Shown one piece after another: positions 3,938-38,136 of a stretch of 64,000 nt of DNA (position 1 is the first letter of the stretch; each line of letters starts with the position of its first letter). Below the pieces are notes generated by a model. It searched no databases and had not been told where the DNA came from. It saw only the letters and a list, made by a program, of their open reading frames with translations. The stretch covers positions 9,514 to 73,513 of the forward strand of contig JAEZSC010000031.1 of assembly GCA_023422005.1 (NCBI GenBank), read 5' to 3'. This DNA is from Bacillota bacterium (lineage in GTDB: Bacteria > Bacillota > Clostridia > Christensenellales > UMGS416). Made by a program: the position numbers and the translations under genes.

Positions 3938-4159
3938 CTATTCTTTTTGTTGATTGAGGATCTCCAAGTTCTCCGCCACGAGCTCGCTGACCGTCACGGG
4001 CTTGAAGCCCTTCTCCTTGAGTTCGGCCAGCAGGTCCGGCAGCGCCTCCCAGGTGTGGGCGGCGTCGTTGTGATAAAGCATGATGGAGCCGCTTTGCACC
4101 TTGCTAAAAATTCGGTTCTTGATGGCGGCCACGTCCAGGCCCTTCCAGTCCAGGCTATC
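3938..4159 (-). pseudogene. C-terminal fragment (~73 codons) of the split PdaB-like polysaccharide deacetylase
   Basis: The minus-strand frame reads DSLDWKGLDVAAIKNRIFSKVQSGSIMLYHND...FKPVTVSELV, the C-terminal NodB region. It has no start or RBS of its own. The frame continues upstream into island DNA. Confidence 0.85.
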
Positions 4160-4193
4160 AACTTGGGTTATGAAAGTAAAAATTAAAACAGAG

Positions 4194-5717
4194 CTATTCC
4201 GGCACCTTCCAGACGATTGTAACCTCGTTGTTGTCCTTGATGGAGATCATCTCGATGTACTTTTTGCTGATCTTCTTGCGCTCCTCAATGTCCCCATGCT
4301 GCCAGGCAGCCAAAAGGGCATCGGCGTCCATCTGCTCATCCTCCTGAACACCTGTCTTCATCTTGCGCCAGCTTAGCTCTTCGCTAAGCTGGCTCTGCTT
4401 TTCCTCCAGCAGCATCAGGCGCTTGGTGATGTGCTCACGCAAAAAGTCGTTGGCATGGCGGAGCTGTTCCATGTAGTCCTCATATTCCTTGCCGATCTCC
4501 ACAATCTGCATCTTGATCTTATTGGCCTGTTCATCAAAGGGCTGCGGTATCATCTCGACCAAATGGGCCAACGAGGCCATCTTGTCCAGCAGACGGGCTT
4601 CCACCAGTTCTTCCACGTCCTCCGCCAACACCGCCTCGCTGTGCCCTTGGCACAGATGGTAGTTGGTCTTGCCGCGGCAGTTGAGGTAGTTTCGTCCCTC
4701 CCGGTAGGCCAAAAAAGTCATGGCGTAACCGCAGTAGCCACACTTGGTAAGACCCGATAGCCAGGAGTACTTACCCTTTCCGGAGTTTTTGATCTGCTCA
4801 TTGGCGTCCAGCTTGTACTGCACGCGGAGCCACACGTCCGCAGGGATGACGCCTCCGTGCAGCCCGACGGACACATATTGATCTTTCAATTGACGGTATT
4901 TGGACGTGTTTCGATCCCGCTGCCCATATAACAAAAGTCCCCGTTCTCCGATAAAGGAGCTGACATCGTTGGTGATATGGCATCCTTTAGCCAGATAATA
5001 TGTGTAGACATCCACGTCCGCACACACGTAGAAGGGATTCCTCAAAATCTTGGACACCTTGGCGGATTCCCATTTGCCGCCCAGCGGCGCAGGAACGTCC
5101 ATCCCCCGGAGCTTGTCGCAGATGCCGGACAGGGTGAGCCCTTCGTCATACCACCGGTACATTTCTATAAGGTGTGGATTCTCAATCTCGTCGGGCACGC
5201 TGAGCTTCATCGCCCGGCCATCCTCGGCAGTATGGACCTTTCGGTATCCGTAATGGGTTTTACCACCCAGGGTACGCCCCTGTTTGGCCCGGGCGTAATA
5301 GTTGTCCTTAACGCGCAAGGCAATGGTTTCCCGCTCAAGCTGGGCAAACACCAACGTGATGCTCAGCATAGCCCGGCCGGTGGCTGTGGAAGTGTCGAAG
5401 TTGTCGTTCAGAGAAACGAAAGCGACACCATGTTTTTCCAGAATCTTATAGACATTGTAGAAATCCACCAATGAGCGGCTGAAGCGGTCTACCTTGTAGA
5501 CGATGACCTTTTTGATGATTCCCGCTTCGATGTCATTGACCATCTTCTTGAAATCCGGCCGATCGATGTTGCTTCCGCTGTAGCCACGATCCTTATATAC
5601 CCTGTAGTTGACATTTCCCCGGGGATCATCAATCATGCGGACGCATTTTTCAATCTGCGTCTCAATGGAATCGCTATCCTTCTTATCGATGCTCTGTCGG
5701 GCATATACAGCGATCAT
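4194..5717 (-). CDS. Large serine recombinase
   Basis: N-terminal resolvase catalytic domain (VYARQSIDKKDSDSIETQ, VYKVDRFSRS), recombinase/zinc-ribbon region (CGYCGY...CRGK) and a coiled-coil tail. ATG at 5717 follows GGAGGG at 7-nt spacing. Confidence 0.95.
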   Translation of the reverse strand: MIAVYARQSIDKKDSDSIETQIEKCVRMIDDPRGNVNYRVYKDRGYSGSNIDRPDFKKMVNDIEAGIIKKVIVYKVDRFSRSLVDFYNVYKILEKHGVAFVSLNDNFDTSTATGRAMLSITLVFAQLERETIALRVKDNYYARAKQGRTLGGKTHYGYRKVHTAEDGRAMKLSVPDEIENPHLIEMYRWYDEGLTLSGICDKLRGMDVPAPLGGKWESAKVSKILRNPFYVCADVDVYTYYLAKGCHITNDVSSFIGERGLLLYGQRDRNTSKYRQLKDQYVSVGLHGGVIPADVWLRVQYKLDANEQIKNSGKGKYSWLSGLTKCGYCGYAMTFLAYREGRNYLNCRGKTNYHLCQGHSEAVLAEDVEELVEARLLDKMASLAHLVEMIPQPFDEQANKIKMQIVEIGKEYEDYMEQLRHANDFLREHITKRLMLLEEKQSQLSEELSWRKMKTGVQEDEQMDADALLAAWQHGDIEERKKISKKYIEMISIKDNNEVTIVWKVPE

Positions 5718-5805
5718 GAAAGACCCTCCAAATGAAAAGCCTGCATTGCTGCAGGCACTTTTCCCCATCCCAATTACCAGTTAAAACATCGCATATGTTC
5801 AAATA

Positions 5806-5988
5806 TCACCCGATGCTATTCAGCTTGTTTGCGTTCTGGTTCTGCGTTGCCTTTCTGTCGCGCAGGATTTTTACGACGCACATCACAGCTTCCTGCTGCC
5901 TGCGCTTTCCTTCTTCTTCTGTAAGCTGGGGATAGTTATCACAGATGGTATATGTTCTGCCCGACTTGGCAACAAACGTCCGTTTCAT
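5806..5988 (-). CDS. Small hypothetical protein upstream of the recombinase
   Basis: 60-codon ORF with a GGTGA RBS-like sequence, same strand as the recombinase and immediately upstream of it. No recognisable family. Confidence 0.4.
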   Translation of the reverse strand: MKRTFVAKSGRTYTICDNYPQLTEEEGKRRQQEAVMCVVKILRDRKATQNQNANKLNSIG

Positions 5989-6172
5989 TCGATCACCCAG
6001 ATTATTTATATGTCTATCTCCGCCTTATATCACATAAACAACATCCGACTGCCATGCTTCGGGCATCATGGTTTTTAGCTGTCCGGCTCGTTATCCTCCC
6101 AGATTCGCCGGCAGCCCCCCCCTCTTCGCAATGGCGTGTTTGGTACGGAGTTTGACAAAAATCCGTATGATA

Positions 6173-6190
6173 TTTATAATTTATAATTAA
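6173..6190. promoter_or_regulatory. AT-rich TTATAAT-type repeat, weak Fur/PerR-box candidate
   Basis: TTTATAATTTATAATTAA lies ~25 nt upstream of the Fur-family gene. It only partly matches the 7-1-7 TTATAATnATTATAA architecture. Confidence 0.25.
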
Positions 6191-6216
6191 GAACGATTCC
6201 TATATAGGTATTGCAT

Positions 6217-6612
6217 ATGAATAACCATACAAGACGAAACAGCATACAACGGCAGCTGGTGATGGACGCTCTCAAAACACTCGACCATCCCACCGCAATG
6301 GATGTCTTCAACGAGATTCGGAAGACCTATCCGCATATGAGCCTGGGCACGGCCTACAGGCATTTCCAACTGATGGCGGAGAATGGAGTGATCCGCCGGT
6401 TATCTGTCCCCGGCTCTGCTGACCGGTTCGACATCAATATGGTACCACACCAGCATATCCTGTGCATCCAATGCAGCCGCTACCTTGATGTTGACGAGGC
6501 AGTAGCCGGAGACATTGACCGGATGGTGGAACAGACGACGGGGTTTCTGGTGAAGAGCCACAGTATACACTTCAGCGGAGTCTGCCCCGCTTGCAGGGAT
6601 GCCCAAAACTGA
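6217..6612 (+). CDS. perR: Fur family transcriptional regulator, PerR-like by context
   Basis: Fur-family DNA-binding N-terminus, HxH region and two CxxC pairs (CIQC..., CPAC). Immediately upstream of katG. Confidence 0.8.
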   Translation: MNNHTRRNSIQRQLVMDALKTLDHPTAMDVFNEIRKTYPHMSLGTAYRHFQLMAENGVIRRLSVPGSADRFDINMVPHQHILCIQCSRYLDVDEAVAGDIDRMVEQTTGFLVKSHSIHFSGVCPACRDAQN

Positions 6613-6645
6613 GCGCAGCCGAACAGATTGCGTATTTCAGCATGA

Positions 6646-8901
<2,256 letters not shown>

Positions 8902-9048
8902 AATGCAGGTAACTGGCGCTTATGATCGATGAAGGATGATTGACCGGTGTGGGCGCGAACGTGATCATCGTCGCACTCCACCCTGCTGACATCATGGCGG
9001 AGTATCATTTCTGCCCGCGGATTTGCGGCTATCCTTGCGTTGTGTGCT

Positions 9049-9077
9049 GTGGGCATCGCCGGTATGGCGATGCCCAC
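9049..9077 (+). terminator. Hairpin downstream of katG
   Basis: 12-bp stem GTGGGCATCGCC/GGCGATGCCCAC. The following tract is only moderately T-rich. Confidence 0.45.
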
Positions 9078-9135
9078 ACTCTCTCTGTCCTGTTTGTAAT
9101 TGTGCGGCTTTCTAACCATCATTCACTTTAATCTC

Positions 9136-9161
9136 CATGAAAAATCATGACAACTCCATGA
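9136..9161 (+). promoter_or_regulatory. Three direct CATGA repeats at 10-11 bp spacing upstream of the RR/HK operon
   Basis: CATGA at 9136, 9146 and 9157 (a GATGA follows at 9171). Downstream lie an ATGCGC-GG-GCGCAT palindrome and an extended -10 sequence, TGCTATAAT. Confidence 0.35.
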
Positions 9162-9260
9162 TCTTTTCCTGATGATTCCCTTGCATCCCAACATTATAAT
9201 GATATATGCGCGGGCGCATGCGCCGCTATTTTGCTATAATAAAGACTCCGGGAGGAGAAT

Positions 9261-10055
9261 ATGGCGAGAATACTGGTCGTGGAAGATGACCCCAACATCT
9301 CCAAGCTGATCGCGGCTTCTCTGCACATGGCCGGGCACCGGGCAGAAGTGTGCCGCGAGGGTACACCGGTCGTGGATCTGGTGTTCGGCGGTGAGTTCGA
9401 CCTGGTGCTGCTGGACATCATGCTGCCGGGAATGGACGGGTTCGAGATTATGAGCCGGATTCGCATCCGCAGCGTGCCCGTGATCTTCCTGACAGCCAAG
9501 GGCAACGTGGCCGACCGGGTGACCGGGCTGCGCCTGGGCGCAGACGACTACATCGTGAAGCCCTTTGAGCCCGTGGAGCTGCTGGCCCGCGTGGAAGCGG
9601 TGCTGCGCCGGGCGGGCAAGGCCGCGGAAGTCTACAGCCTGCACGGCATCGAGCTCAACGTGACCGAGCGCCTGGTGCGCAAAGACGGTCACCGGGTGAA
9701 CTTGGCCCCAAAGGAGTTCGACCTGCTGGCGCTGCTGATGCAGAACGTAAACATAGCCCTGGCCCGCGAGAAGATACTGGCCATCGTGTGGGGCTACAGC
9801 TACCAAGGCGAAACGCGCACGGTGGACACCCACATCCAGCAGCTGCGCAAGAAGCTGGACCTGAAAGACTGTCTGCGGACCGTTTCAAAAGTTGGGTATC
9901 GATTGGAGAAGGACGATGCGCTTTGGTCAAAAGATTTTTCTATTGACGCTGGCGCTGGTGACGTTGGCGGTATATGCCATGGGCTGGATGATGATACTGA
10001 GCAGCCACCGCGCGCGAATGGACCAGGAGACGCAACGAGCGCTGCGGGAGCATGA
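9261..10055 (+). CDS. OmpR-family response regulator with an unusual 3' extension
   Basis: Receiver domain (LVLLDIMLPGMDG) and winged-helix domain (TVDTHIQQLRKKL...VGYRL). The frame has no stop until 10055, so it overlaps the kinase gene by ~140 nt. Confidence 0.9.
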   Translation: MARILVVEDDPNISKLIAASLHMAGHRAEVCREGTPVVDLVFGGEFDLVLLDIMLPGMDGFEIMSRIRIRSVPVIFLTAKGNVADRVTGLRLGADDYIVKPFEPVELLARVEAVLRRAGKAAEVYSLHGIELNVTERLVRKDGHRVNLAPKEFDLLALLMQNVNIALAREKILAIVWGYSYQGETRTVDTHIQQLRKKLDLKDCLRTVSKVGYRLEKDDALWSKDFSIDAGAGDVGGICHGLDDDTEQPPRANGPGDATSAAGA

Positions 10056-11358
10056 GATGGTGGCGCTGTCGCTGCACACGGCCATCCTGTATCAGAGCCT
10101 GCAGCAGAGCATCCCGGCGGCGGACCCGGAGCAGACGCTGCAAGCGGTGCAGGGTGTGGCCTCCTCCCTCCTGGGGCGGGACGCCGCGTCGCCGGGCATA
10201 TCTCTGGAGCTCTATCAGAACGGCGAGCCGGTCTTCGGCAACTTCACCGGCGACCTGGGTGTGCAGCGGCCGGAGCTCTCGGTGGATGGGCAGGCCTGCC
10301 AGAGCATCTTCCGCGATGCGGGCAGCCAGACCTATCTGCTGGTTTCCAGCCGGGAGCAGCTGCGCGGGGCCGAATATACGCTGGTGTCCATCCGCGACTC
10401 CAGCGCCATTTTTGAGGCGCGCAGGAGCCTGGCCGCCCGGATGGCTGCTATCGGTACGGTGATCTCCGTGCTGGTGGCCGCGGCGCTGTTTCTGCTCACG
10501 CGGCTCATGACCCGGCGCATCGCGCTCATCCGCAACGTTTCCCACCGCCTGGCCGACGGGGACTATTCCCAGCGCATCACCATCTGCGGCCATGACGAGC
10601 TGACCGAGCTTTCCGACGATTTCAACACGATGGCCGAGGCCATCCAGCGCAACGTGAACTCCCTGGAGACCGTTGCAAGCGACCAGCGGCAGTTCATCGA
10701 CAACCTGACCCACGAAATGAAGACGCCGCTGACGTCCATCATCGGCTTTGCCGACCTGATCCGCAGCGCACGGTATATGGACGACGCCACCCGGGCGGAT
10801 TACGCCAGCAGCATCTATCAGGAGGGCCAGCGCCTCAAAGACCTGTCGGGAAAGCTCATGGAGCTCATCCTGCTAGGGCGCACGGACCCGGAGATGGAAA
10901 CACTGGATGTGGCGCTCTTCCTGCAGGAGATTGCCGCGCTCAGCGCGCCGATACTGGCCAAGCGGCAGATGGAGCTGGACCTGCACACCGAGCCAGCCGC
11001 GCTGATGGCCGACCCCAGCCTTATGCAGTCGCTGATCTTTAACCTGGTGGACAATGCCTGCAAGGCATCCCAGCCAGGGCAACGGGTGGAACTTGCCAAT
11101 TATGTAGACCGGCAGCGCCGGCTGCATATCCGCGTCAGCGACCATGGCCGGGGCATCCCCTCGGGGGAAATCCATAAGATCAAGCAGCCCTTCTATATGC
11201 TGGACAAGGCGCGCACCCGGGCCGAGGGCGGCGCGGGGCTGGGGCTGGCGCTATGCAACCGCATCGCCGCGCTGCACCACGCCGTGCTCAACATCACCAG
11301 CAAGGTGGGCCAGGGCACCGTTGTGGAGCTCGTGTTCTCCCGGGAGGTGAGCGAATGA
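9916..11358 (+). CDS. Sensor histidine kinase (2 TM, HAMP, HisKA, HATPase)
   Basis: H-box LTHEMKTPLTSI plus N, G1 and G2 boxes (DNACKAS, DHGRGIP, GGAGLGLAL). ATG at 9916 follows GGAGAAGGA. Confidence 0.9.
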   Translation: MRFGQKIFLLTLALVTLAVYAMGWMMILSSHRARMDQETQRALREHEMVALSLHTAILYQSLQQSIPAADPEQTLQAVQGVASSLLGRDAASPGISLELYQNGEPVFGNFTGDLGVQRPELSVDGQACQSIFRDAGSQTYLLVSSREQLRGAEYTLVSIRDSSAIFEARRSLAARMAAIGTVISVLVAAALFLLTRLMTRRIALIRNVSHRLADGDYSQRITICGHDELTELSDDFNTMAEAIQRNVNSLETVASDQRQFIDNLTHEMKTPLTSIIGFADLIRSARYMDDATRADYASSIYQEGQRLKDLSGKLMELILLGRTDPEMETLDVALFLQEIAALSAPILAKRQMELDLHTEPAALMADPSLMQSLIFNLVDNACKASQPGQRVELANYVDRQRRLHIRVSDHGRGIPSGEIHKIKQPFYMLDKARTRAEGGAGLGLALCNRIAALHHAVLNITSKVGQGTVVELVFSREVSE

Positions 11359-12575
11359 GGCGCGTGCAGGAATCCCCAACGCTGTCTCGCAGGGCCAGGG
11401 GCCCGGCGCGCCGGGTGCGGGCTCTGCCGGAAGGCTTCCTGGGTAACGCATTGACGCTGGCCGCGGCGCTGGCCATCCTGCTGGCCGGATTTCTTGCCGC
11501 CATCAACATAGACCGTCTGCTGCCCTCGGGCAAGGGTATGCTGGCAGTCAGCCGATCCCGCAACCAGCTGGACGAAAGCTGGCTGCAAGGTGTGGGCCGT
11601 GGCACCTCGCTGCAGGTGTTCCCCTACGACGGGTCCGGCACGACGTTGGAAGAGCTGGACAAGGACACTGCACTGCCGGCGCTGCTGGGCATAAGAGATC
11701 TGATAAACCTGTCGGGCCTGATCGTCAAGCAATGGACGCATATGCCCGACGGCAGCGCGATGAAGCCCTTTTGGTCAGCCATGTGGTTTAGCCAGTACGA
11801 TGATACAATCCCCGATATTTCGGCATATCTGCGCCTGGAGGACATACAGGAAAAAGCCCGCAGCCTTGGCGCGTATGACGGTTTCACACCATCGCCCACC
11901 AAGGTGGCGCCCGCGGTCACCGTTTTTGTGCCGGACGCCGCAGACGAACAATATAATGGCGTGACCGTACCGCTTGAGACCGTACCACTGGAGACCGTAC
12001 CGCTGGAGACCGTGCCGCCGGGCGCCAGCCTGAACGCCGCCCAGTACGCCTGCGTGCTCAAATCCCCGCTGCCCGGCTTGGCCGCCCCGGAGCGCTGGCT
12101 TTTATACCGTGTGCCCATCGCATGGTACCAGAAGAAGGAAGCCGAGGATGTGCCCGCGTCGTGCATCTTCATCGCCGACGGAGTCCATCACGCTTCCCGG
12201 GGGCTGGTCCATCTCTTCCTGCACGAACCCGGCCAGAGCTTCCCCGGCAGCTTCACCGAAACCAACGACGAGGCCTCCCTGCAATACATCAAGGCCCAGG
12301 CCGCCGCCTTCCTGGATTTGCTGCTCAACGCGCCGGACCGGGAGAAAAACAGCACCTTCTACGACAAAAGAATGGTTGCGGAGTGGCATGCCCGCGGGAA
12401 CACCCGCCCCGCCGATACGCGGGGCCTGGTCTCGGTGGAGGCGGACGCATGCTACGTTGCGGGCAATTTGTTCGCCGTGTCCTTCCCCTGCGAGGGCGGC
12501 GGGCGCATCCTGCTGTACGTGGATGCCGCCACGATGAGCTTCCGGGGGTTCACCCGCCAGTATACCGGCAGATAA
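11355..12575 (+). CDS. Hypothetical N-terminally membrane-anchored protein, translationally coupled to the kinase
   Basis: ATGA start/stop overlap with the kinase gene, GGAGG RBS, one N-terminal TM segment and an internal VPLET x3 repeat. No recognisable domain. Confidence 0.6.
   Translation: MRRVQESPTLSRRARGPARRVRALPEGFLGNALTLAAALAILLAGFLAAINIDRLLPSGKGMLAVSRSRNQLDESWLQGVGRGTSLQVFPYDGSGTTLEELDKDTALPALLGIRDLINLSGLIVKQWTHMPDGSAMKPFWSAMWFSQYDDTIPDISAYLRLEDIQEKARSLGAYDGFTPSPTKVAPAVTVFVPDAADEQYNGVTVPLETVPLETVPLETVPPGASLNAAQYACVLKSPLPGLAAPERWLLYRVPIAWYQKKEAEDVPASCIFIADGVHHASRGLVHLFLHEPGQSFPGSFTETNDEASLQYIKAQAAAFLDLLLNAPDREKNSTFYDKRMVAEWHARGNTRPADTRGLVSVEADACYVAGNLFAVSFPCEGGGRILLYVDAATMSFRGFTRQYTGR
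11964..12020 (+). repeat. 15-nt in-frame tandem repeat (VPLET) x3 plus a partial unit
   Basis: ACCGTACCGCTTGAG / ACCGTACCACTGGAG / ACCGTACCGCTGGAG / ACCGTGCCGCC... Confidence 0.9.
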
Positions 12576-12693
12576 GGTTTGCTTTTGCTCAGCCAACCCT
12601 AGATACCACCTTTACATTTTCCGCACATTTTACGGAGGACTCGCTGTATTCGCTCATGCTAGTGTGTGTTCATCCTACAAAGGAGAACATGCA

Positions 12694-13602: not shown

Positions 13603-13747
13603 GATGGCTCCCTGACCGGGGCGCCGGGCATATTACCAAATGTCTGCCACACCCAAAAAAACCCATGCAGATTCCTTTTTCACTTTCTGCACAACACATC
13701 ATTTCATAAATCCGGCAAATGATAATCCTAGTTTCGGAGGGTTATCA

Positions 13748-14248: not shown

Positions 14249-14263
14249 TAAGGAGAATTTACA

Positions 14264-14710: not shown

Positions 14711-14725
14711 AAGAACCTCTGCCAC

Positions 14726-28316: not shown

Positions 28317-29923
28317 GGCATGTTACCCCTGCGATATTCGCTGGGCGTGCAGCCAGCTACTTTTTTGAAGACGAAGCTGAAGTAATGGGGATCCTTATAT
28401 CCCACCGCGCCGGCGATTTCGTTGGAACGCTTGTCCGTATGCCGGAGCAACCGCTTGGCCTCGCCAATCCGTTTGCCCGTAAGGTACTCCACGAATGTTT
28501 GACCGACTTCCTGGCTGAATATCGCCGAGAAATAGTTTGGGCTGATGTTCACATTTTTGGCGACCCTGTCCAGGGAGATGGACTCCTCCGGATAATGGGC
28601 ATCGATGAACCCGATGGCTTTGCTCAACAGTTCCCGTTGCTGGCGTTTGCTTTCGCTGTCGCGCAATTCGATGGTTTGCTTGATGACCTGGCAGGCATGC
28701 CTGTGGGCATCCTCAGGCGTGCAGGCAGCTTTGGGCCGCAGTTCCGCGGGCCAAAAACCATCCTTGCGGCAGCCGATGGAGTCTACATATTCTGCCGCCA
28801 CATAACATACCGTCATGGCCAAGTACCGGCAAAACAACGAAATGGGCACACCCTCGCCGACACCGCGCAGCAATTGGTCCACGAAATGCTCCGTTTCTTC
28901 CTTGGCCCCTCCGCTCAAAAAGCCGCGGATGCGCTCGTGGTCCAGCTCTCCCTCATCTGCACCGGCAGCGGAAGCGCTTTTCTTCTGGAAACTGCCGATG
29001 CTGGCTTCGGAAAGCACATGCTCCTGAGGGCAGAGATAACGATAGGACAGAATGCGGTTGGCCTCGGCGAAACAGGCCGGAAGCGCGCCCAGGCGGGGCA
29101 CAGGTGTGCCGCAGGCAATGTGCCAGTCCACATAGTTGCCGGCCAGTATGCAACGGTTGCGGATATTCTCCACACAATCCTGCATCATCCGGGTGATATC
29201 CTCCCGTTGGCCCTTGATGAGAACCGCGTAAGAGGTGACATTCCACCGGAACAGGATCAACTCCGGGCGGCTGACGATGTACTTGGTCACCTTATCCTGC
29301 ACCGCCGCCAGCACATCCGTATACCCTTCCGGAGTGCTGCCGTCGTATCCTGCGCTGCTCAGCGAAAAGAGCATCATATTGTAGAATGGAGCGTTCACAT
29401 CCACGCCCAAGGCCTGGGCTGTTTCGGTGATTTCGGACACGCTCATACCGCCGGTGACGATCCGTTCAAAGAACCGCCGCCGAGAGAATGTCTCATACTC
29501 CTGGGCTTCCCGCTGGAACCTGGTCAGGTATTCCTGCTGCTGCAGTTCCGCTTCCATTTTCTTTTGCAATGTGCTCAGGGTTTCGGCGATCTTATCCTTT
29601 ACGATGGGCTTGAGCAGATATTGCTCCACGCCCATGCGAATGGCCTGCTGGGCATAGGAAAAATCGTCATACCCGCTGATGATGATAATTTTAGTTCTGG
29701 GCAGTTCCTTGCGCACCACTTCAACCAATGCAAGCCCATCCATGAAGGGCATGCGTATATCGGTGATCAAAAGGTCGGGTTGTATCTGGCGAATCAAGGG
29801 CAGTGCCAGTTCACCGTCCGGCGCATCCCCGGCATACGAAAATCCATATTGCTCCCAGAAGATGTTATTGCGTATGCCTTCGCGTACGACGATTTCATCC
29901 TCAACAAGAAAGAGCTTGAACAT
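28313..29923 (-). CDS. Response regulator with AraC-type HTH output (YesN-like)
   Basis: Receiver domain (LLITDIRMPFMDG) and a C-terminal AraC HTH (SPNYFSAIFSQEVGQTF...GYKDPHYFSFVFKK). Confidence 0.92.
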   Translation of the reverse strand: MFKLFLVEDEIVVREGIRNNIFWEQYGFSYAGDAPDGELALPLIRQIQPDLLITDIRMPFMDGLALVEVVRKELPRTKIIIISGYDDFSYAQQAIRMGVEQYLLKPIVKDKIAETLSTLQKKMEAELQQQEYLTRFQREAQEYETFSRRRFFERIVTGGMSVSEITETAQALGVDVNAPFYNMMLFSLSSAGYDGSTPEGYTDVLAAVQDKVTKYIVSRPELILFRWNVTSYAVLIKGQREDITRMMQDCVENIRNRCILAGNYVDWHIACGTPVPRLGALPACFAEANRILSYRYLCPQEHVLSEASIGSFQKKSASAAGADEGELDHERIRGFLSGGAKEETEHFVDQLLRGVGEGVPISLFCRYLAMTVCYVAAEYVDSIGCRKDGFWPAELRPKAACTPEDAHRHACQVIKQTIELRDSESKRQQRELLSKAIGFIDAHYPEESISLDRVAKNVNISPNYFSAIFSQEVGQTFVEYLTGKRIGEAKRLLRHTDKRSNEIAGAVGYKDPHYFSFVFKKVAGCTPSEYRRGNMP

Positions 29924-30161
29924 CCTGGCTACCCCTTTTGATAGACTTGCCTATCTCTTTGCTGTGAGTACAAACCCCCTAATATTATGTATCCCAATAT
30001 GCGAATCAACAATAGAATATCTTATGATTTTGGTTCTTTTCTCAACGAGCATTGAGCCTAAATGTTTCAACAAAGAGGACACCTAAAATTATTGACATAC
30101 AATAATCCCCATGGTACACTTTGTAATAAATTATTGGAAAACGATAATTGGTGAGGTTTCT

Positions 30162-31190
30162 ATGAAACGCAGAACACTTTGGATGCTCCTTATACTCGAG
30201 GCAGGGGTATGCGTGCTGCTTCGCACGCACCAAGTGCCCATGACGATCGGTTCCACCTCCGTGCTGGCTTTTCCCTTTGAGCAGATTGGCCTGGGTTTGC
30301 GGGCGCTGTCCTTGTCCGGCGGGCTGGGCAATGTGGCCGCGTGCATACTCTATGCCGCCATCAGCCTGATTCCCGTGGCGGCTCTGGCTGTGCTCATGCT
30401 GCGGCGCAAGGCGCGGCCAGAGGATGGGCTGCTGGTGCTGCTGAGCGCGGCGCTGTTCGCGGTGCTCTATCTGATGGTCAACCCGGCCATCATCGGATCG
30501 CTGTTTGGTGCGTCTGCAGTGCCGTTGGTAGATCAGGTGATGCTGGGTGGCCTCGACCCCTCTCTGGGTGGCTCGGCAGCGCTTCCGGCAGGCAAGGCGA
30601 TACTGGGCACCACGGTGTACTCGGTGCTGGTGGGCTACCTGGTGCTGCGGGTTCTGCGGCTGTTCTTCGCCGGCAGCACGGAGAAATTGCAAAAGTACCT
30701 GGCCGCCTTGCTCTTCTGTATGAATCTGCTGTTCGTCTGGCTGGCCTTCGGTGTGGGCTTCAGCAAGATGATGGACTCCATACAGTCGCTTGGCGCGGGG
30801 AACACCGCCGGCGGGCAGCTGATGGGCATGAGCACCTTCGTTTTGGTGTTGCAGTTCCTCGTGGATGCCTTGCCGTATCTGCTGGATGTGCTGGTGGTGT
30901 TTGCAGCCCTGCGGCTGCTGGACGAACTGAAGGTGGATCGCTATTCCCCTGAAAGCGTGGAGGCAGCCGGGCGGCTTTCCCGGCTGTGCGGCGGGGCGCT
31001 GGCAGCCACGACACTCACCAATATGGCATTCAACCTCCTGCAGCTGCTGGTCAAGAGGTCGGCACTGGTGATCAACAGCAGCGTGGAAATTCCGGTATTC
31101 TCCATTGTCTTTGTGCTGGCCGTGCTGCTGTTCGCCCGATTCATCGCCCAGAGCAAGCAGCTCAAAGACGACAACGAGCTGTTTATTTGA
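30162..31190 (+). CDS. DUF2975-like polytopic membrane protein
   Basis: Multi-TM protein immediately upstream of a YozG-like small HTH gene, the usual DUF2975 context. Family call is from architecture. Confidence 0.5.
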   Translation: MKRRTLWMLLILEAGVCVLLRTHQVPMTIGSTSVLAFPFEQIGLGLRALSLSGGLGNVAACILYAAISLIPVAALAVLMLRRKARPEDGLLVLLSAALFAVLYLMVNPAIIGSLFGASAVPLVDQVMLGGLDPSLGGSAALPAGKAILGTTVYSVLVGYLVLRVLRLFFAGSTEKLQKYLAALLFCMNLLFVWLAFGVGFSKMMDSIQSLGAGNTAGGQLMGMSTFVLVLQFLVDALPYLLDVLVVFAALRLLDELKVDRYSPESVEAAGRLSRLCGGALAATTLTNMAFNLLQLLVKRSALVINSSVEIPVFSIVFVLAVLLFARFIAQSKQLKDDNELFI

Positions 31191-31200
31191 GGGGTGCACG

Positions 31201-31428
31201 ATGGCCATACGAGTCCATCTGGAAGATGTACTGAAAGCCCGAGGAATGACCTCCAAAGAGCTGTGCGGTCTGGTGGGCATCACCGAGGCGAACCTATCCA
31301 TACTGCGCAGCGGCAAGGCCAAGGGCGTGCGCTTCGGCACGATCAACAAGATATGCTGGCACCTGGGCTGTGATGTGGGAGATATCTTGAAATTTGATGG
31401 AAACCTGGAGGAAGACGATGAAGACTAG
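31201..31428 (+). CDS. Small Cro/C1-type HTH regulator (YozG-like)
   Basis: 75 aa; LEDVLKARGMTSKELCGLVGITEANLSILRSGKAKGVRFGTINKICWHLGCDVGDIL matches the YozG-type pattern. Confidence 0.8.
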   Translation: MAIRVHLEDVLKARGMTSKELCGLVGITEANLSILRSGKAKGVRFGTINKICWHLGCDVGDILKFDGNLEEDDED

Positions 31429-32323
31429 AGCCAATCATGCCCTCTGCTGCCTGATCATTTTGCTGCTGGGCACTCTGTCCGGCTGCCAGCTGGCCCAAAC
31501 GGACAAAGGCGCCGACGCGGCCCAGGACAGGTTGATCGGCGTGTTCGTCACCACCGGGCATCTAGACATGCAAGGGCGGCTGTACGCGACGCAGAAGAAA
31601 AGAACGGTAACCGACGAGACCGGTAAAACCATCGAGACCGATACGTATGCCTTTGAAGGCGTCACAGGGATGTTATACATCAATGCCATTGTGCCCGCGA
31701 CAGCAGCGATGGACAGCTACCATACCACGATAGCCGACGACGGGATCAGCGACAGAAAAACCAGCCTGGGCCTCGGGGATGTGGAAAACTCTACAGTGCT
31801 GGACGGAACAATATACGCCTCCATGGGGCGCGGTGAGGTCATCTTCTACTTCAACCCGGTATATCAGGATGGCATTGGCAGGGTTTATGCGACCGCCGGC
31901 ACAGGCTTGTCTTCCGGCAATATGCAATCGGATGGGGCGCAGTTCTCCCAAACCATGAATGCCACCCAGACGGTGACGGAAAATGGAAAGGCGAAGAAGG
32001 ACAGCATAACGATCAAGCTCAACATACAGATGATGAACCCACCCACGAAAGTCGCGATTCTGCGGATGGACGCCAACAACGCGGTGCTCTCCCGCGAGGA
32101 GTTCACCCCCAACGCGGTGCCAACGCAGATCACGCTGGAGCAAGCCACGGATTATATCGTCGTCGAGTCAACCCAAAGCAGCGCAGATGGCACCGAAAAG
32201 GTCACGCGCAAGCTGGTGGGCAAGGACGCCACAGCGTTGGAGAGCTTCTGGTGCCGGGATGACGGCATTTGCATAAAACAGAGCACGCAGGTGTTGTGGC
32301 CCGATGCTCAGCCTCTATCGTGA
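31418..32323 (+). CDS. Hypothetical lipoprotein
   Basis: Signal peptide with lipobox LSGC. 11-nt overlap with the HTH gene. No recognisable domain. Confidence 0.6.
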   Translation: MKTRANHALCCLIILLLGTLSGCQLAQTDKGADAAQDRLIGVFVTTGHLDMQGRLYATQKKRTVTDETGKTIETDTYAFEGVTGMLYINAIVPATAAMDSYHTTIADDGISDRKTSLGLGDVENSTVLDGTIYASMGRGEVIFYFNPVYQDGIGRVYATAGTGLSSGNMQSDGAQFSQTMNATQTVTENGKAKKDSITIKLNIQMMNPPTKVAILRMDANNAVLSREEFTPNAVPTQITLEQATDYIVVESTQSSADGTEKVTRKLVGKDATALESFWCRDDGICIKQSTQVLWPDAQPLS

Positions 32324-32415
32324 GGACCGTCGGCAGCCAACCCTACGGAGATGGCGCCTCCTCCTTGTCGCGGGCAGAGTGGCTTCGCGGCACAGCGGCC
32401 GAGGCGACGGACTTC

Positions 32416-34158
32416 TTAGTCCAGGGCGCTCTGCAGCGCATAGAGCTGCGCATACTGCCCCGACTGACCAAGCAGCTCACGGTGGGTGCCGCTTTCAACA
32501 ACCTGGCCGTTCTCCATGAATAGGATCCAGTCCGCGTTGACGATCGTCGAAAGGCGGTGGGCTACGATGATCGTCGTACGCCCCTTCATCAGGCGGCCCA
32601 ATGCGTCCGTGATGCGCTTTTCCGACGTGCTGTCCAGCGAAGCGGTCACCTCATCCAGCAGCAGCACCGGCGCGTTCTTGAGCATGGCTCTGGCGATGGC
32701 GATCCTTTGACGCTGCCCTCCGGACAGCTTCACGCCGTTTTCACCGACCGGTGTGTGATATCCCTGGGCCAACTCCTGCACAAAGCTATCCACGTCAGCA
32801 GCCTTGGCGGCTTCAAGGACCTGTTGGTCAGAGGCTTCCAGGTTGCCCATGCGGATGTTCTCCAGTATAGACCCATCGAACAGCGGGCATTCCTGCGGCA
32901 CATAGGCCGACAGGCCGCGCAACTGAGGCAGCTTCATATCCCGCACTTCCAGCCCGCCGATGGTCAGGCTGCCCGTGTAGCCGTCGATACCCATCAACAG
33001 ACGCAGCAGCGTGCTCTTACCGCTGCCGCTATAGCCGGCGATGCCGCAAGTCTGCCCGCTGGGCACAGCGAAGTTGACATCTCGGAGGGTTTCCTTCCCG
33101 TCGTCATAGCGGAAGCTCAGGGTCCTTGCCTCCACCGCAATATTTTCCAGTTGCACCGCCGTGCCATCGGATTGGGTATCTTCCTCCGCCTGATCCAGGA
33201 TCTCCGATACACGGCGGGCGCCGGCAAGGCTTTCCTGCAGGTCGATGAGGATCCAGCCGATGCCGGCGATGGGCCCTACGACCGTCGCGCCCACCTGGAT
33301 CAGCACAGGCAGCATTGCGATGCCTATATCCCCCTGGCTGTAGAGCACAAGACCCAGGCCGATGCTGCAGGCCGCCGTCAGGCCGGCGTTGACCTGATTG
33401 AGACCGTAATAAGTAGCCGAGAGGTTTAGCGCGGACATCGCCTTTGAAAACAGCTGCCGGCAGGAATCGGTGAAACGCTGCATGAGCCCCGTGTCCTCGC
33501 CGTAGATGCGAACCAGCTGAGAACCGGCCAGCAGATCGCTCATATAAGAAACCGTAGTCCCTCTTTGACTCTGCTTCGCGCGCCAGCGCGCTTCGCTCTT
33601 GTTCACAAGCGGCAGATTGATCGCCATCATCAGCAGCCCCACCCCGATCAACGCCAGCGCGATGCGCCAATCGATCAGCCACACGGTCACGATGCCCAAC
33701 ACCACAGAGATGGCCGAACCGGCCAGTGAGGACATCAAGTATTCCAAGGTATTGGCGCACAAGCTGGCGTCGCTGTCCAACCGGGACAAGTTGTCGCCGG
33801 TATGGGCCTTGCTCGTTACGCGATAGGGAAGGTTGATCATGTGGGCGAATAACCTGCCCTTAAGCCGGTTGGTCGCCCGCAGCGTGGCATCCTTGAAAAT
33901 ATAGTTGCCTATGGCTCCCGCCACGAGGTTTAGCGCGATGAGCGCTGACCACTTCAACGCTTCGGACAGCACACCGCCATACTGACCCAGCTTTGCATAC
34001 TGGATCATACCGCCCATGATAAGGCCGATCAGCAGAGAGTTAAAATAGTTCGACGCCGCGCCCAGAATCAAACCAGCTACATATTTGTTCTTCCACTGTG
34101 CAACATGAGCAAGGATGTTCCTCACGTACCGGTAATCCCGCCGGAAGCTCTTTATCAT
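32416..34158 (-). CDS. ABC exporter, fused permease/ATPase (MsbA/MdlB-like), subunit 2
   Basis: 6-TM domain plus an NBD with GYSGSGKST, LSGGQRQR and LLLDE. Confidence 0.92.
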   Translation of the reverse strand: MIKSFRRDYRYVRNILAHVAQWKNKYVAGLILGAASNYFNSLLIGLIMGGMIQYAKLGQYGGVLSEALKWSALIALNLVAGAIGNYIFKDATLRATNRLKGRLFAHMINLPYRVTSKAHTGDNLSRLDSDASLCANTLEYLMSSLAGSAISVVLGIVTVWLIDWRIALALIGVGLLMMAINLPLVNKSEARWRAKQSQRGTTVSYMSDLLAGSQLVRIYGEDTGLMQRFTDSCRQLFSKAMSALNLSATYYGLNQVNAGLTAACSIGLGLVLYSQGDIGIAMLPVLIQVGATVVGPIAGIGWILIDLQESLAGARRVSEILDQAEEDTQSDGTAVQLENIAVEARTLSFRYDDGKETLRDVNFAVPSGQTCGIAGYSGSGKSTLLRLLMGIDGYTGSLTIGGLEVRDMKLPQLRGLSAYVPQECPLFDGSILENIRMGNLEASDQQVLEAAKAADVDSFVQELAQGYHTPVGENGVKLSGGQRQRIAIARAMLKNAPVLLLDEVTASLDSTSEKRITDALGRLMKGRTTIIVAHRLSTIVNADWILFMENGQVVESGTHRELLGQSGQYAQLYALQSALD

Positions 34159-35888
34159 ATTGCGACACCATCCCTTTCCAGCATCTGCTGCTGATATAGG
34201 CTCCTGTACAGCGGACTCTCCCGAATCAGATGGTCATGGGTTCCCTGGGTGACGATGGCGCCGTCCTGGATCACGAGGATACGATCCGCATGGCGGATCG
34301 TGGACAGGCGATGGGCAACGACCAACGTCGTGCGGCCTTCCATGAGCCGCTCCATACTCTGCTGCACGATGCGCTCGGCGGCAGCGTCCAGCGCGGAGGT
34401 GGGCTCATCAAGCAGCAGCACCGGCGCATCCTTGAGCATCGCCCTGGCGATGCTCAGCCGCTGGCGCTCGCCACCGGATACTTGTATGCCCCGCTCTCCT
34501 ACCTGTGCATCCAGACCTCGCTCCGTCACAAAGGCCAATATTCCAGCCCGCTCACAGGCCAGCAGCAGTTGCTCGTCGGTGGCTTTGTTATTGGCGGCCA
34601 GCAGGTTGTCCCGGATGCTGCCGGGGAACAGGTAGCTATCCTGTGAGACCAGCGCCAATTGGCCGCGCAGCGGGCCCAGTGCCCAGGCATTCACAGCGCC
34701 GCCCATGACCCTCACCTCTCCGCTGTCCGCCTCCAGAAATCCGCAGATCAGCTTGAGTATCGTGCTTTTGCCGCAACCGCTTGCTCCCACCAGCGCCACG
34801 GTTTCGCCGCGACGCACATGGAACGAGATGCCCTTAAGAAGTGGCGGATTGTCCGGATAGCCGAACGTGACGTTTTCAAAGGCGATTACGTCACCGCTGT
34901 CGTCTGGCTGGCTGAAAAGACCTCCCTGTTCCTCGGGCAGGTCCAGATAGTCATAGATGCGGGTGCAGGCGCCTAAGGCACGCTGAACGATGGAAAAAAC
35001 GTTGGGGACTTGCGTCAGCCAATAGACCAGCCCATAGCCTACCATCGTTAGCGACAGCAACTGCCCGGCACTCAGCGTGCCTTGTGCCACGCGCAACGCA
35101 CCCAGCACCAGCATGACAACCATCGGCACCATACCCAGCGCTGTGCCGCCGGCATTCATCTGCACCGTGGCTCTCTGGGAACGCATATCCGCCCGCATCG
35201 CCTCTTTCAGCGATATCTGATAGCGCTCATTGACGAACTTTTCCAAGCGGAAGGACTTGATGACGACCGGTGAACTCAATCCCTCCTGCGCCATCTGCTG
35301 AGCGCGGCCCAGTGCATTACGCTTGCTTTCCTCGTTTTTCCTGATCGGCTTGGTGATGCGCAGGCTGAAAGGCAGCACCAGCAAAGACACGCCCATCAGG
35401 ATCGCTGTCAGTGGAAGATCGATGATGACCATAAACCATGCAGTGCACAAAATAATCGTCGCCAATGTCGTGATCGTCGACAGCCCGGAGCCGGCAAAGC
35501 TGTAGATCGAGTTCAGCTCATCACCCAGATGGCTCATGATGTCACCGCTGCGCTGTTCCTCCAACGCGGGTATGGACAACCGCCTGGACTTCTCCCCGAT
35601 GCGGATGCGCAGCTTCATGTTGACCAGTTCGGACATGCGAAACTTCGTCAGCATGGAGATGGTGTGGAAGGGCGCCGCTGCCAGCGGCGCTGCGACCAGC
35701 AGCCATAGCTTACTCCAGAAGAGCCCACCGGAAGCGGCGTCCATAACCTGGCCGGTCAGAGCGCGCATCCAAATGTCCAGTACCAGATAGGCGATTGTGG
35801 ACAAAATGCTGCCCAGATACAGGGGCCACTCGTCCAATACCTCCGCCATTAAACGCCATAAGGGTCTGCGTTTCGCTTTTGTTTTCAT
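34155..35888 (-). CDS. ABC exporter, fused permease/ATPase, subunit 1
   Basis: 6-TM domain plus an NBD with GASGCGKST, VSGGERQR and LLLDE. 4-nt overlap with the partner suggests a heterodimer. Confidence 0.92.
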   Translation of the reverse strand: MKTKAKRRPLWRLMAEVLDEWPLYLGSILSTIAYLVLDIWMRALTGQVMDAASGGLFWSKLWLLVAAPLAAAPFHTISMLTKFRMSELVNMKLRIRIGEKSRRLSIPALEEQRSGDIMSHLGDELNSIYSFAGSGLSTITTLATIILCTAWFMVIIDLPLTAILMGVSLLVLPFSLRITKPIRKNEESKRNALGRAQQMAQEGLSSPVVIKSFRLEKFVNERYQISLKEAMRADMRSQRATVQMNAGGTALGMVPMVVMLVLGALRVAQGTLSAGQLLSLTMVGYGLVYWLTQVPNVFSIVQRALGACTRIYDYLDLPEEQGGLFSQPDDSGDVIAFENVTFGYPDNPPLLKGISFHVRRGETVALVGASGCGKSTILKLICGFLEADSGEVRVMGGAVNAWALGPLRGQLALVSQDSYLFPGSIRDNLLAANNKATDEQLLLACERAGILAFVTERGLDAQVGERGIQVSGGERQRLSIARAMLKDAPVLLLDEPTSALDAAAERIVQQSMERLMEGRTTLVVAHRLSTIRHADRILVIQDGAIVTQGTHDHLIRESPLYRSLYQQQMLERDGVAI

Positions 35889-36233
35889 CAGAAATCACCT
35901 CATGTCGGGTTAGGCTGTATAGCCATCGGCTCAACGCCTGCATCGGTGGCAACTTTATTATTGTGCTTGAAAATACATGTAAGAATAGCTCTTGCGGCTT
36001 ATCCCAGGCTTAAAACGGTTTGTTCTGCTGGCTGAAATTTTTGAGCATAGTATCCTGGAAATTATTGCAGAAGAGTAGTATACAAAAAGAAAAAGAACAT
36101 GTAAAGAAGGGATTTCTCATACCAAACCTTGCGCGGCGGTCGGTTTGGTGAAGACGTGACTGGCTAAGCCCAACGGATTGTTCCTATTCATTTGTTTGAA
36201 CGAGTTGGCTGGCCAATCTTCCGCATCGTAAAA

Positions 36234-37385
36234 TCACAGCACGCCTGCGATCACTGTATTCAGATAATTGTCGAATTTCCGCACCAAGATGCCGTCGCCG
36301 AAATCCATGGACACCATCATGCAGGTCGCCACAACCTCGTACACGGGGTCGATAAACAGCATTGTGCAGCCCGCGCCGCCGTGGGAAAACGCTTGCGGAG
36401 AACGCAGCGTACCCGTTTCATCGGTCTTGTCCAGGGACAGGCCGAACGGCAGGCCCCAACCGGATTCCTTGAACACCTTGTCCCCATAATGGGAAATGAT
36501 GCCTTTCGTCTGGTTCCTCGTCATGGCATCGACGGAAGCCCGGCTTAAAAACCGCCTGTCGTTATGCATCCCCTTATCGAGGAACATCTGCCCCATCAGC
36601 GCCAGGTCATAGGCCGTGGAATAAGCACCGCCGCTGGCGGATTGGTTCTTTCGGTGATCCAATCCGTTCAGGCTCTTGAAGATTGCGTTTTCCGGGTAAA
36701 CGATTATCCTGCCGTCCAGTTCATCCGGCACGGAAAGGTAGGAATCATTCATTGCTAGAGGGCCGAAAATCCGCTCCCTAAAGAACGCGTCCAAAGACAT
36801 ACCGCTCACACGCACGACGATCTCGCCTGCAATCCCTATCCCGAAACCGGAATAAGACATTTCCTCACCAGGCGCTTTCCACAGCGGAGCGGAGCAACCC
36901 ATGTAGAAGTATTTGCCCAGGTGCGGGTGCAGCCTGGCATACTCCTCGGGAATCTGTGTGCTTTCAAAGTCCGGTTTTATATGATTCCAGAGATCTTCAT
37001 CCCGTATGCCGGACGTGTGTGTCAGCAGGTGATGAATCAACACCTGGTTCTTCCCGTCACCCTTGAACTCCGGAATGAATTCCTGGACTGGGCGCGTGGG
37101 GCTGACCAACCCTTCCTCGGTCAGCAGGAAAATCGCAATACCTGTTAACACCTTCGTGATGGACGCAATGGGGAAGATCGTGTCCGGCTGCAGCAACTCG
37201 GGCGGATCGCCGGGCACGCGCAAACCCTTGGCGCCATAGGCGAAAATCACACCTCTGTGAGCGGCAAGGTAAGCAACAGAAGTTGTAAATCCGGTGTCGA
37301 TCCACCTGCATGCAAGCCTGTCAAGCTTCTCCGCCGTGCCTGGGTGTATTCCTGCCTGTTGCTCGGTACCAAAATGCAGCTTCAT
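36234..37385 (-). CDS. Serine hydrolase, class C beta-lactamase/PBP4*-like family
   Basis: SxxK motif (ASITK) near the N-terminus; ~380 aa beta-lactamase-fold pattern. Confidence 0.8.
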   Translation of the reverse strand: MKLHFGTEQQAGIHPGTAEKLDRLACRWIDTGFTTSVAYLAAHRGVIFAYGAKGLRVPGDPPELLQPDTIFPIASITKVLTGIAIFLLTEEGLVSPTRPVQEFIPEFKGDGKNQVLIHHLLTHTSGIRDEDLWNHIKPDFESTQIPEEYARLHPHLGKYFYMGCSAPLWKAPGEEMSYSGFGIGIAGEIVVRVSGMSLDAFFRERIFGPLAMNDSYLSVPDELDGRIIVYPENAIFKSLNGLDHRKNQSASGGAYSTAYDLALMGQMFLDKGMHNDRRFLSRASVDAMTRNQTKGIISHYGDKVFKESGWGLPFGLSLDKTDETGTLRSPQAFSHGGAGCTMLFIDPVYEVVATCMMVSMDFGDGILVRKFDNYLNTVIAGVL

Positions 37386-37554
37386 ACTGTGCCGCTCCTT
37401 CCGATTACCTTTTCCGCCGAATGCTGACCTTCCCCAGCCTTTACACCAGCCGGCAGATCACCTTTAGCAGGGAAGCTCAATCGACATAATTATAACCATT
37501 ATGTATAGTTGAGACAATAGAAATAACACAATATAAGGAGACACAGTATTGTGA

Positions 37555-38136
37555 TTAACCATCGAGTTTATCACGGAGTCTTTTTACTTTAGTATCCAAA
37601 GTTTCCACGTCCCACTGTATAAACGCCACCCCATACTTCCCCACGAGGTCCACGAGTTTTGCGTTCCATGCCCCATAGGGTGCGCGGAAGATCATCGGCC
37701 TTTTTCCCGTAATCCTCTCAATGGTGTCGTCGGTCTTCTTGAGTTCTTCCATTACCTCATTGTCGGGCAGCTTTGTCAGGTCCTTATGGGTGTAACCATG
37801 GCTGCCGATCTCGTGTCCGCGGTTAGCGATTTCCCGGAGCATGTCCGCGTTTTTGTTGGCCCACATGCCGGTTACAAAAAAGGTCGCCTTGATGCCCGCG
37901 TCGTCCAGCGCATCCAGTATGGCGATGGTCTTGTCGGTGCCCCAAGCGGCGTCAAAGGTGATGGCAACCTGCATGTTTTTGGTGTTGACACTATAGATCG
38001 GTATATCATCCTTGGGCGCGAACGCCGACGCGGCGTCGGGCCGCAGCGCCAACACCACGATCAGCACCACGACCAGCGCCGCCGCCACGATGCCCCAGCG
38101 GACCAATTGCTCCTTGGTGATCAATAAAATTCGCAT
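37555..38136 (-). pseudogene. N-terminal fragment (~177 codons) of the split PdaB-like polysaccharide deacetylase, plus 16 island-encoded codons
   Basis: TM anchor, ITFDAAWG, HEIGSHGYTH and RAPYG NodB motifs. Homology ends at ...IQWDV at the junction (37606/37607), and the frame then runs into ETLDTKVKRLRDKLDG-stop. Confidence 0.85.

Follow-up and report, generated by a model that had tools for sequence, protein, structure and literature searches.

Introduction

The genes from which the mother cell is known to excise intervening elements are sigK, spsM, spoVFB, spoVR, gerE, kamA, and yabG (PMC4191935; PMC5595907; PMC6957869; PMC5025042; PMC10747680). The known elements in sporulation genes are few, and most come from Bacilli or from single strains. 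The skin element of Bacillus subtilis is a degenerate prophage that is retained for gene reconstitution (PMC6957869). SPbeta and phi3T comprise active phages and degenerate derivatives at one site, and their recombination units are exchangeable (PMC4191935; PMC5499854; PMC6957869). The skinCd element of Clostridioides difficile is served by a constitutive recombinase and a 72-amino-acid directionality factor that is regulated by sigma-E and SpoIIID (PMC5025042). Literature searches, whose coverage left out many subscription papers, returned no pdaB or other polysaccharide deacetylase gene as an interrupted sporulation gene. The sigma-E regulon of B. subtilis includes pdaB (spoVIE), without which sporulation efficiency drops to 5% (PMC4703394), so pdaB is the kind of gene that such elements use. 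Here, a 33.4-kb segment that divides a pdaB-like gene is described from a 64-kb stretch of the Clostridia contig JAEZSC010000031.1 (the whole stretch is referred to as the window). With a probability of roughly 0.6, the segment belongs to the gene-intervening elements of the skin/SPbeta/gin type and undergoes developmental excision from a mother-cell sporulation gene. The target gene, the recombinase clade, and the candidate directionality-factor family are new within this known class.

A pdaB-like gene divided at codon 178

The element is 33,446 bp long and occupies positions 4160..37605 of the window. At its right end, a minus-strand open reading frame (ORF; 37555..38136) encodes 193 amino acids. 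The first 177 of these form a NodB-type deacetylase with a transmembrane anchor and the motifs ITFDAAWG, HEIGSHGYTH, and RAPYG, ending in FIQWDV; the last 16 are unrelated codons, a tail supplied by the element. At the left end, the minus-strand frame reads TQV/DSLDWKGL and continues to QQKE and a stop, the part that follows the slash being the missing 73 residues (Table 1). Joining the segments in silico at the TC dinucleotide common to both junctions yields a 250-codon ORF that reads through QWDV/DSLDW. The split point is the GA of codon 178, and the insertion separates NodB motifs 4 (DxxDW) and 5 (LxH) from the 5' part, a motif assignment that is established for CE4 deacetylases.

The rejoined protein matches Pfam PF01522 (Polysacc_deac_1) at 1.6e-36 and aligns without a gap over the joint with PDB 7y51 (W-NVD-PDDW there, W-DVD-SLDW here). 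Intact orthologues of 249-250 amino acids (P0001-P0003) share 80-81% identity at 100% coverage and are colinear over the joint. At the DNA level, the intact gene of locus L003 matches window positions 38163..37604 and then directly 4162..3971, which amounts to proof of an empty site. The initial annotation had located the two gene halves and the junctions, predicted the in-frame rejoining at the common TC/GA, and called for an uninterrupted orthologue across the joint. Sequence reading confirmed every one of its coordinates, and the three proteins together with the L003 DNA provide that orthologue. No intact allele above 81% identity was found among 5.8 billion proteins.

NCBIfam TIGR02764 (PdaB) is the top model for the joined protein, more than 50 bits ahead, and PdaB was always the best model for the full-length proteins checked, by about 50-70 bits over the next. 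The orthologues P0001 and P0003 score 202-211 bits, and the reconstituted target of locus L018 reaches 239.1 bits, above the model's cut-off. Residues D62, A63, A64, W65, and G66 of the FDAAWG motif are invariant in an alignment that includes P0049, a protein named PdaB by NCBI. The earlier placement of FDAAWG in the PdaB subgroup thus holds for the shared motif and the ranking of the models, and falls short on the score itself (see below). The window protein is likely an orthologue of B. subtilis PdaB, uncertified by the cut-off score.

In C. difficile, promoters of sigma-E carry ATA and those of sigma-K carry AC in the -35 element, with a common -10 element, and three deacetylases are under sigma-E control (PMC3789822). 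The CATAGGAT box ahead of the split gene was read against a sigma-E/K consensus taken in part from that study (PMC3789822); it is kept in the window, in locus L001, and in the intact L003. Full sigma-E-like promoters precede pdaB in the more distant orthologues L024 and L042.

Selection on the halves also speaks for continued use of the gene. Each of the 34 distinct 3' halves has an open frame up to its natural stop and retains the motif-5 His, with neither a start codon nor a promoter of its own. The ratio of non-synonymous to synonymous substitution rates (dN/dS) is 0.07 for the 5' half (window against L001) and 0.22 for the 3' half (window against L009; 9 synonymous changes at 47.8 sites, 8 non-synonymous changes at 171.2 sites; Fisher p = 0.0035). 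Such constraint would not be expected of a fragment that never becomes joined, and intact, selected orphan halves support a gene that is still in use.

Recombination sites and recombinase

The half-site GRTAYNAAAGTAAAAA has exactly two copies in the 64 kb (chance expectation, 0.00). The copies are inverted, and each lies 7 nucleotides from its crossover TC. A generic inverted-repeat search of the 33-kb island did not make this terminal repeat outstanding against chance repeats. Its evidential weight therefore lies in its position and its conservation in the family. Accordingly, the "near-perfect inverted repeat" of the initial annotation was dropped as stand-alone evidence and replaced by the positioned half-site motif. 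The predicted joints are CCAGTCCAGGCTATCCACGTCCCACTG for attB and ATCCAAAGTTTCAACTTGGGTTAT for attP. A second recombinase or tandem elements within the island were considered and rejected, as no other recombinase was present among the scanned ORFs and the half-site has only its two copies.

The recombinase gene stops 34 nucleotides short of the crossover. Its 507-residue product contains Resolvase (PF00239, 3.9e-36), Recombinase (PF07508, 2.8e-14), and Zn_ribbon_recom (PF13408, 3.2e-11) domains, in agreement with the large serine recombinase proposed at the outset, and matches the phrog_95 integrase at 6e-100. Across 13 family recombinases, Y5, R7, Q8, S9, D77, R78, and R81 are invariant, as are the four Cys residues C326, C329, C347, and C356. 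A search of GenBank phages with the recombinase gave nothing above 37% identity and thus no named phage relative.

A family of elements targeting the same codon

An alignment of the window recombinase with related proteins was used to scan GTDB at one genome per species, which returned 80 loci with recombinases of 36-91% identity (mostly 36-45%). In 46 of them, a pdaB half is broken at residues 177/178. This half adjoins the recombinase gene or lies within a few kb of it, mostly less than 1 kb away, and both halves are present in eight loci. Junctions were anchored by tblastn; loose regular expressions were dropped after many chance matches. At all surveyed junctions, the 5' half ends in CAR-TGG-GAY-GTN/GA and the 3' half begins with /GAY-AGY-CTN-GAY-TGG-AAR. 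The crossover dinucleotide is GA/TC in every case, and half-sites like G(A/T)TA(Y)NAAAGTAAAA stand inverted around each junction as element arms. These junctions define the recognition site of the recombinase family: its centre is the GA of the Asp codon with which NodB motif 4 begins (QWDV/DSLDW).

Carriers include Oscillospiraceae, Ruminiclostridium, Vallitalea, Anaerovorax, Caproicibacter, Oscillibacter, and Lachnospiraceae, and among the named species are Ruminiclostridium sufflavum DSM 19573, Caproicibacter fermentans EA1, Oscillibacter ruminantium GH1, and Anaerovorax odorimutans DSM 5092. In A. odorimutans DSM 5092 (L018), a 5.2-kb family element lies in the pdaB gene at 6659-11915. Where both ends are visible, element size ranges from 1,944 bp to 11.4 kb. 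The smallest (L007, L008, and L011; 1,944 bp) consists of the small ORF and the recombinase gene and nothing else. At the other extreme, the L093 element is a prophage with genes for major head, major tail, tape-measure, and Dit proteins, and phage genes also occur in the relative L096. The family is thus a continuum of element types, from prophage (L093) through cargo island (the window) to two-gene cassette.

Related recombinases are also found in IMG/VR on predicted viral contigs, seven or eight of which end in a pdaB half. A palindromic attP pattern occurs at 57 sites in that database. Five of the 57 follow a family recombinase gene, 7-116 nucleotides past its stop codon; their arms are inverted around GA, and their vicinity is free of pdaB fragments. 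Judged by this arrangement, the five contigs are unintegrated elements, and their intact sites bear out the attP architecture predicted initially for the window. One of these contigs holds tail, PhuZ-like, and NrdD genes.

Comparison of close relatives separates a stable unit from exchangeable cargo. L001 and L002 have in common with the window the right host flank (92-94% identity) and only about 43 nucleotides of the element. After that, they carry genes for SRAP and a Y-family polymerase, together with a sugar system of another kind. What L009 has in common with the window is the left flank, the 3' half, the small ORF, and the recombinase gene (89% nucleotide identity); its cargo consists of genes for a pyridoxal phosphate-dependent enzyme of Cys/Met metabolism, a flavodoxin, TetR, an ABC transporter, and BlaR1-like proteins. 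Between the window and L009, the element core has diverged at least as much as the host flanks, which indicates an old shared insertion with cargo turnover and not recent independent invasions. The conserved core is the recombination unit of small ORF, recombinase gene, and att arms, and the cargo is interchangeable.

Some sister recombinases adjoin other genes. Halves of an asparagine-synthetase-like gene (motif SGGLDSS...SGECADEIFGGYPWF) take the place of pdaB at L022:11527-12399 (minus strand), L035:11482-12408 (minus), and L048:7281-7736 (plus), in Ruminiclostridium papyrosolvens, R. sufflavum, and a metagenome-assembled Clostridiales genome. This gene may be a second interrupted gene, and other sporulation genes may serve as targets in a similar manner; asnO of B. 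subtilis is sporulation-specific. At L040:11483-12376, one family recombinase gene has ATP synthase genes (epsilon and beta) beside its end and no pdaB fragment within reach, and the integration site may be a different one.

A small ORF ahead of the recombinase gene

An ORF of 40-75 codons directly precedes nearly every family recombinase gene. In the window it lies 88 nucleotides ahead of the recombinase gene, with a hairpin in between. A similar hairpin occupies the equivalent place in L004 and L007, and it may uncouple or attenuate recombinase expression. Homology of the small ORF is clear within the window's clade (KSGRxY...YPxLTxEEGxRRQQEAV), where a dN/dS of 0.12-0.19 indicates purifying selection. 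A homologue search with it returned only two near-identical hypothetical proteins, because the word filter of the search misses a diverged family.

The sigma-E-type promoter motif kmATAnn-N13-15-CATAnnnT precedes the small ORF in 13 of 63 loci, as against 0.1-0.2% of random or shuffled windows. The looser ATA-N15-17-CATA is found in 25 of 63, including the window, as against 2-3% of controls. In the 1.9-kb cassette (L007:9130-11808; also L008 and L011) and in L004:9145-11524, the reading frame of the pdaB 5' half runs on through the small ORF, so that fusion ORFs of 254 and 269 amino acids result, and a sigma-E-like -35 element overlaps the att arm. The small ORF of L004 and L007 therefore sits behind pdaB's own promoter.

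Proposed excision and competing explanations

The proposed mechanism is copied from skinCd, with its constitutive recombinase and sigma-E-controlled small factor, and from the skr-spoIVCA gene layout. The recombinase by itself would keep the element in place. The 60-amino-acid upstream protein, transcribed from a sigma-E-type promoter, would serve as directionality factor, and recombination of attL with attR at the GA would release a circle with attP and leave an intact 250-codon gene. Such a promoter on the small ORF would confine excision to the mother cell, which differentiates terminally and needs pdaB. The element, with cargo that includes catalase-peroxidase, sugar uptake, and exporters, would stay in the forespore genome, and element and cargo would thereby be inherited. 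Developmental excision, raised tentatively in the initial annotation, is backed by the targeting of the same codon throughout the family, the selected orphan halves, the small ORF with its sigma-E-like promoters, and the cargo-free cassettes. Excision that rebuilds pdaB in the mother cell is the best-supported mechanism, though unproven.

Several points weigh against it. The small ORF has no domain in Pfam or PHROGs, and its role as directionality factor is inferred purely from position. Its promoter in the window fits the loose motif only (ATA-N15-17-CATA, 6030..6009, minus strand), and the promoter matches across loci are not phylogenetically independent, though at least eight clearly different sequences are among them. 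The full sigma-E consensus is that of the B. subtilis literature, of which only the ATA/AC distinction is confirmed by the C. difficile study (PMC3789822). Upstream of pdaB in the window, there is a -10-like CATA box and no convincing -35 element. The joined protein scores 211.0 bits, below the TIGR02764 cut-off of 237.4 bits. The attP joint of the window had no exact match in JGI metagenome contigs, a weak search because mother-cell DNA is rare. The carrier A. odorimutans is described as non-spore-forming (PMC11362086), which implies either cryptic sporulation or a tolerated split in that species.

The segment could instead be an ordinary site-specific island or prophage remnant for which the highly conserved stretch encoding QWDVDSLDW is simply a widely available landing pad. 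On this account, pdaB is inactivated, its loss is tolerated or covered by paralogues, and any excision is sporadic and unconnected with development. Large serine recombinase elements often enter conserved genes, some members of the family are prophages or phage-like genomes, and the non-spore-forming host, the PdaB score, and the missing excision joint all fit such an island. The explanation is nevertheless an unlikely one. It does not sit well with 34 of 34 intact orphan 3' halves under significant purifying selection after an insertion older than the divergence of the lineages, nor with the persistence of 1.9-kb cassettes that have no cargo. Sigma-E-like promoters are, moreover, enriched about 100-fold ahead of the small ORF, and no intact allele has been seen in the window's clade. 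Still less probable is an element that is actively mobile, for instance a satellite of the related phages or an integrative mobilisable island, and that is excised upon the SOS response, a helper phage, or stress and repairs pdaB as a side effect. The wholly different cargo of close relatives with the same recombination unit (window, L001, and L009) would suit it, as would the related recombinases in phage genomes with intact attP and the response of SPbeta to both stress and sporulation triggers (PMC4191935). However, replication, conjugation, mobilisation, and packaging genes were not found in the 33 kb, the divergence of the window-L009 core relative to the host flanks argues against recent transfer, and the enriched promoter motif is of the sporulation type.

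An assembly chimera, in which unrelated contigs were joined within the deacetylase gene, has a negligible probability, even though the window and its nearest relatives are metagenome assemblies. The identical 5' half and junction product is present on 13 contigs from independent samples and assemblers, and a 95%-identical split allele on 7 further contigs, which excludes an artefact. The window's allele is present in ERZ27268853, ERZ28598220, ERZ27268981, ERZ27268873, SRR13347281, and GCA_023435775.1. The other junction is syntenic in L009, the same inverted half-site stands at both junctions, and the same breakpoint recurs in dozens of other species.

A broader reading, for which the odds are about even, is that pdaB is a major unrecognised site of programmed mother-cell rearrangement across Clostridia, served by this recombinase clade and by sigma-E-driven directionality factors of 40-75 amino acids. 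Since the element would be lost only from a dying cell, the pdaB site would be a cost-free "safe harbour" at which the two-gene unit would gather and swap cargo: none (1.9 kb), more than 30 kb, or a whole phage.

Gene content of the element and its surroundings

The positions of the features discussed are given in Table 1. In the first cargo block, a perfect sigma-70 promoter (TTGACA-17-TATAAT) stands ahead of a Fur/PerR-like gene and katG (6152-8901, plus strand). The Fur/PerR-like gene (6211..6612) was recognised from its translation by eye, its only family match being an unnamed PHROG; with katG (6706..8901), it forms an oxidative-stress module in a host that is probably a strict anaerobe. 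The block further contains genes for an OmpR-type regulator and a histidine kinase (9261..11358), VanY (12664..13602), and a YtfJ-like protein (14264..14710), as well as two genes with no family assignment. The sugar-use cluster that follows also encodes ABC sugar permeases, an ATPase, two binding proteins, and a histidine kinase with an AraC-type response regulator. L226-L231 come from strains whose junction is identical and which differ by an indel of 0.35-1.5 kb between the beta-lactamase-family gene and the ABC exporter genes, about 1.2-2.9 kb downstream of the junction (approximately window 35900-36230); in some strains, an acetyltransferase gene lies inside it.

Table 1. Location of the split gene, recombination sites, and element features in the window
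Feature	Position	Strand	Remarks
PdaB-like gene, 3' segment	3938..4159	-	Codons 178-250 and stop; DSLDW and GSIMLYHND motifs; lacks its own start codon
attL	4130..4190		Crossover TC at 4158-4159; element half-site GTTATGAAAGTAAAAA at 4167-4182 (+)
Large serine recombinase gene (507 amino acids)	4194..5717	-	YARQS catalytic serine motif, Recombinase domain, four-Cys zinc ribbon, helical C-terminal region
GC-rich hairpin and T-run	5739..5756	-	GCCTGCAGCAATGCAGGC then TTTT; terminator-like; between small ORF and recombinase start, ahead of the recombinase ribosome-binding site
Conserved 60-amino-acid ORF	5806..5988	-	MKRTFVAKSGRTYT...EEGKRRQQEAV...; candidate recombination directionality factor
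Candidate sigma-E-like promoter of small ORF	6004..6032	-	ATA at 6030-6028, 15-nucleotide spacer, CATATAAAT at 6012-6004
Cargo block 1	6152..14710	+	Fur/PerR-like gene, katG, OmpR-type regulator, histidine kinase, VanY, YtfJ-like gene, two unassigned genes
Cargo block 2, sugar-use cluster	14825..29923		SIS, ROK kinase, ROK/MarR regulator, HAD, PfkB
Cargo block 3	30042..37385		Two ABC exporter genes (32416..35888), beta-lactamase-family gene (36234..37385), two unassigned genes
attR	37575..37635		Crossover TC at 37604-37605; element half-site GATACTAAAGTAAAAA at 37581-37596 (-)
PdaB-like gene, 5' segment	37604..38136	-	Codons 1-177 and GA of codon 178
CATAGGAT box	38155..38162	-	About 20 nucleotides before the pdaB start; like the -10 element of mother-cell sigma factors

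The cargo is limited to metabolic, stress, and regulatory genes. Comparison of 27 cargo ORFs with Pfam and PHROGs revealed no phage structural, packaging, lysis, conjugation, mobilisation, or replication genes, and the PHROG matches in the element were limited to the integrase and the unnamed family of the Fur-like gene. The absence of phage genes had been noted correctly in the initial annotation; its remark that such cargo is unusual is qualified by a precedent, the gin element in gerE, which also lacks phage genes (PMC5595907).

An Rfam scan of the window found tRNA-Pro alone, and thus no RNA element is involved. Outside the element, the GC content falls to 0.45-0.48 at window 59000-63000 (flanks, about 0.55-0.60), beside tRNA-Pro(CGG) at 60437-60513; this region may be a second, tRNA-associated island. 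Judged by L001 synteny, gyrA and gyrB lie at 46514-51159 (minus strand), about 9-13 kb from the split gene, which places the locus probably near the replication origin.

Implications

If the interpretation is correct, the splitting of pdaB in dozens of species would make mother-cell DNA rearrangement common in anaerobic spore formers. Several carrier species are named and held in culture collections. The series from prophage to cargo island to two-gene cassette offers a natural system for the study of domestication, and the family contributes new sets of recombinases, att sites, and candidate directionality factors for genome engineering. It also suggests that genes such as those for catalase-peroxidase and sugar transporters ride the germ line at a site whose cost developmental excision cancels. 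For annotation, the "truncated" pdaB genes of carrier genomes should not be called pseudogenes.

Comparison with known intervening elements

The skinCd element of C. difficile sigK (CD1231 and CD1234) is a close parallel, as a serine recombinase element in a mother-cell gene whose excision, by way of a sigma-E-controlled small factor, rebuilds the ORF (PMC5025042). The window element differs in having a pdaB-like target and in the place of its candidate factor, whose gene immediately precedes that of the recombinase. Its cargo is metabolic and stress-related, whereas that of skinCd is prophage-like. The skin element of B. subtilis sigK (SpoIVCA and Skr) resembles it in its compact recombination unit, with skr at the 5' end of spoIVCA (PMC6957869). 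The target gene and the recombinase clade are different, however, and while skr overlaps spoIVCA, 88 nucleotides and a hairpin separate the two genes here.

SPbeta in spsM (SprA and SprB) and phi3T in kamA likewise combine a serine integrase with a sporulation-induced directionality factor (PMC4191935; PMC5499854; PMC6957869). Unlike SPbeta, the window element has no phage genes, and the similarity of its recombinase to SprA is weak (PDB 9dxh, E = 2e-9, N-terminal residues 36-231 only); the recombinase is not an SprA orthologue. The fdxN element of Anabaena heterocysts, with its recombinase XisF, is similar in that excision takes place in a terminally differentiated cell, but it belongs to another phylum and another developmental programme. 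The XisF model NF041201 is the best-scoring named NCBIfam for the window recombinase, at 129.3 bits against a cut-off of 375 bits, a score so far below the threshold that the recombinase is not an XisF orthologue.

The gin element of Bacillus cereus gerE (GirC and GirX) is a non-prophage element that is excised in sporulation by a serine recombinase with an accessory factor and varies in content between strains (PMC5595907). It differs in its three recombinase genes, restriction-modification genes, recJ, 9-bp core, and Bacilli host. The yin element, which splits the sporulation gene yabG of Clostridium botulinum, has a large serine recombinase, and both a small directionality factor and a sporulation-sigma promoter have been predicted for it (PMC10747680). 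In contrast to yin, a prophage reported to be unique to one strain, the pdaB family extends over at least 46 species-level genomes, and some of its members are cassettes without cargo.

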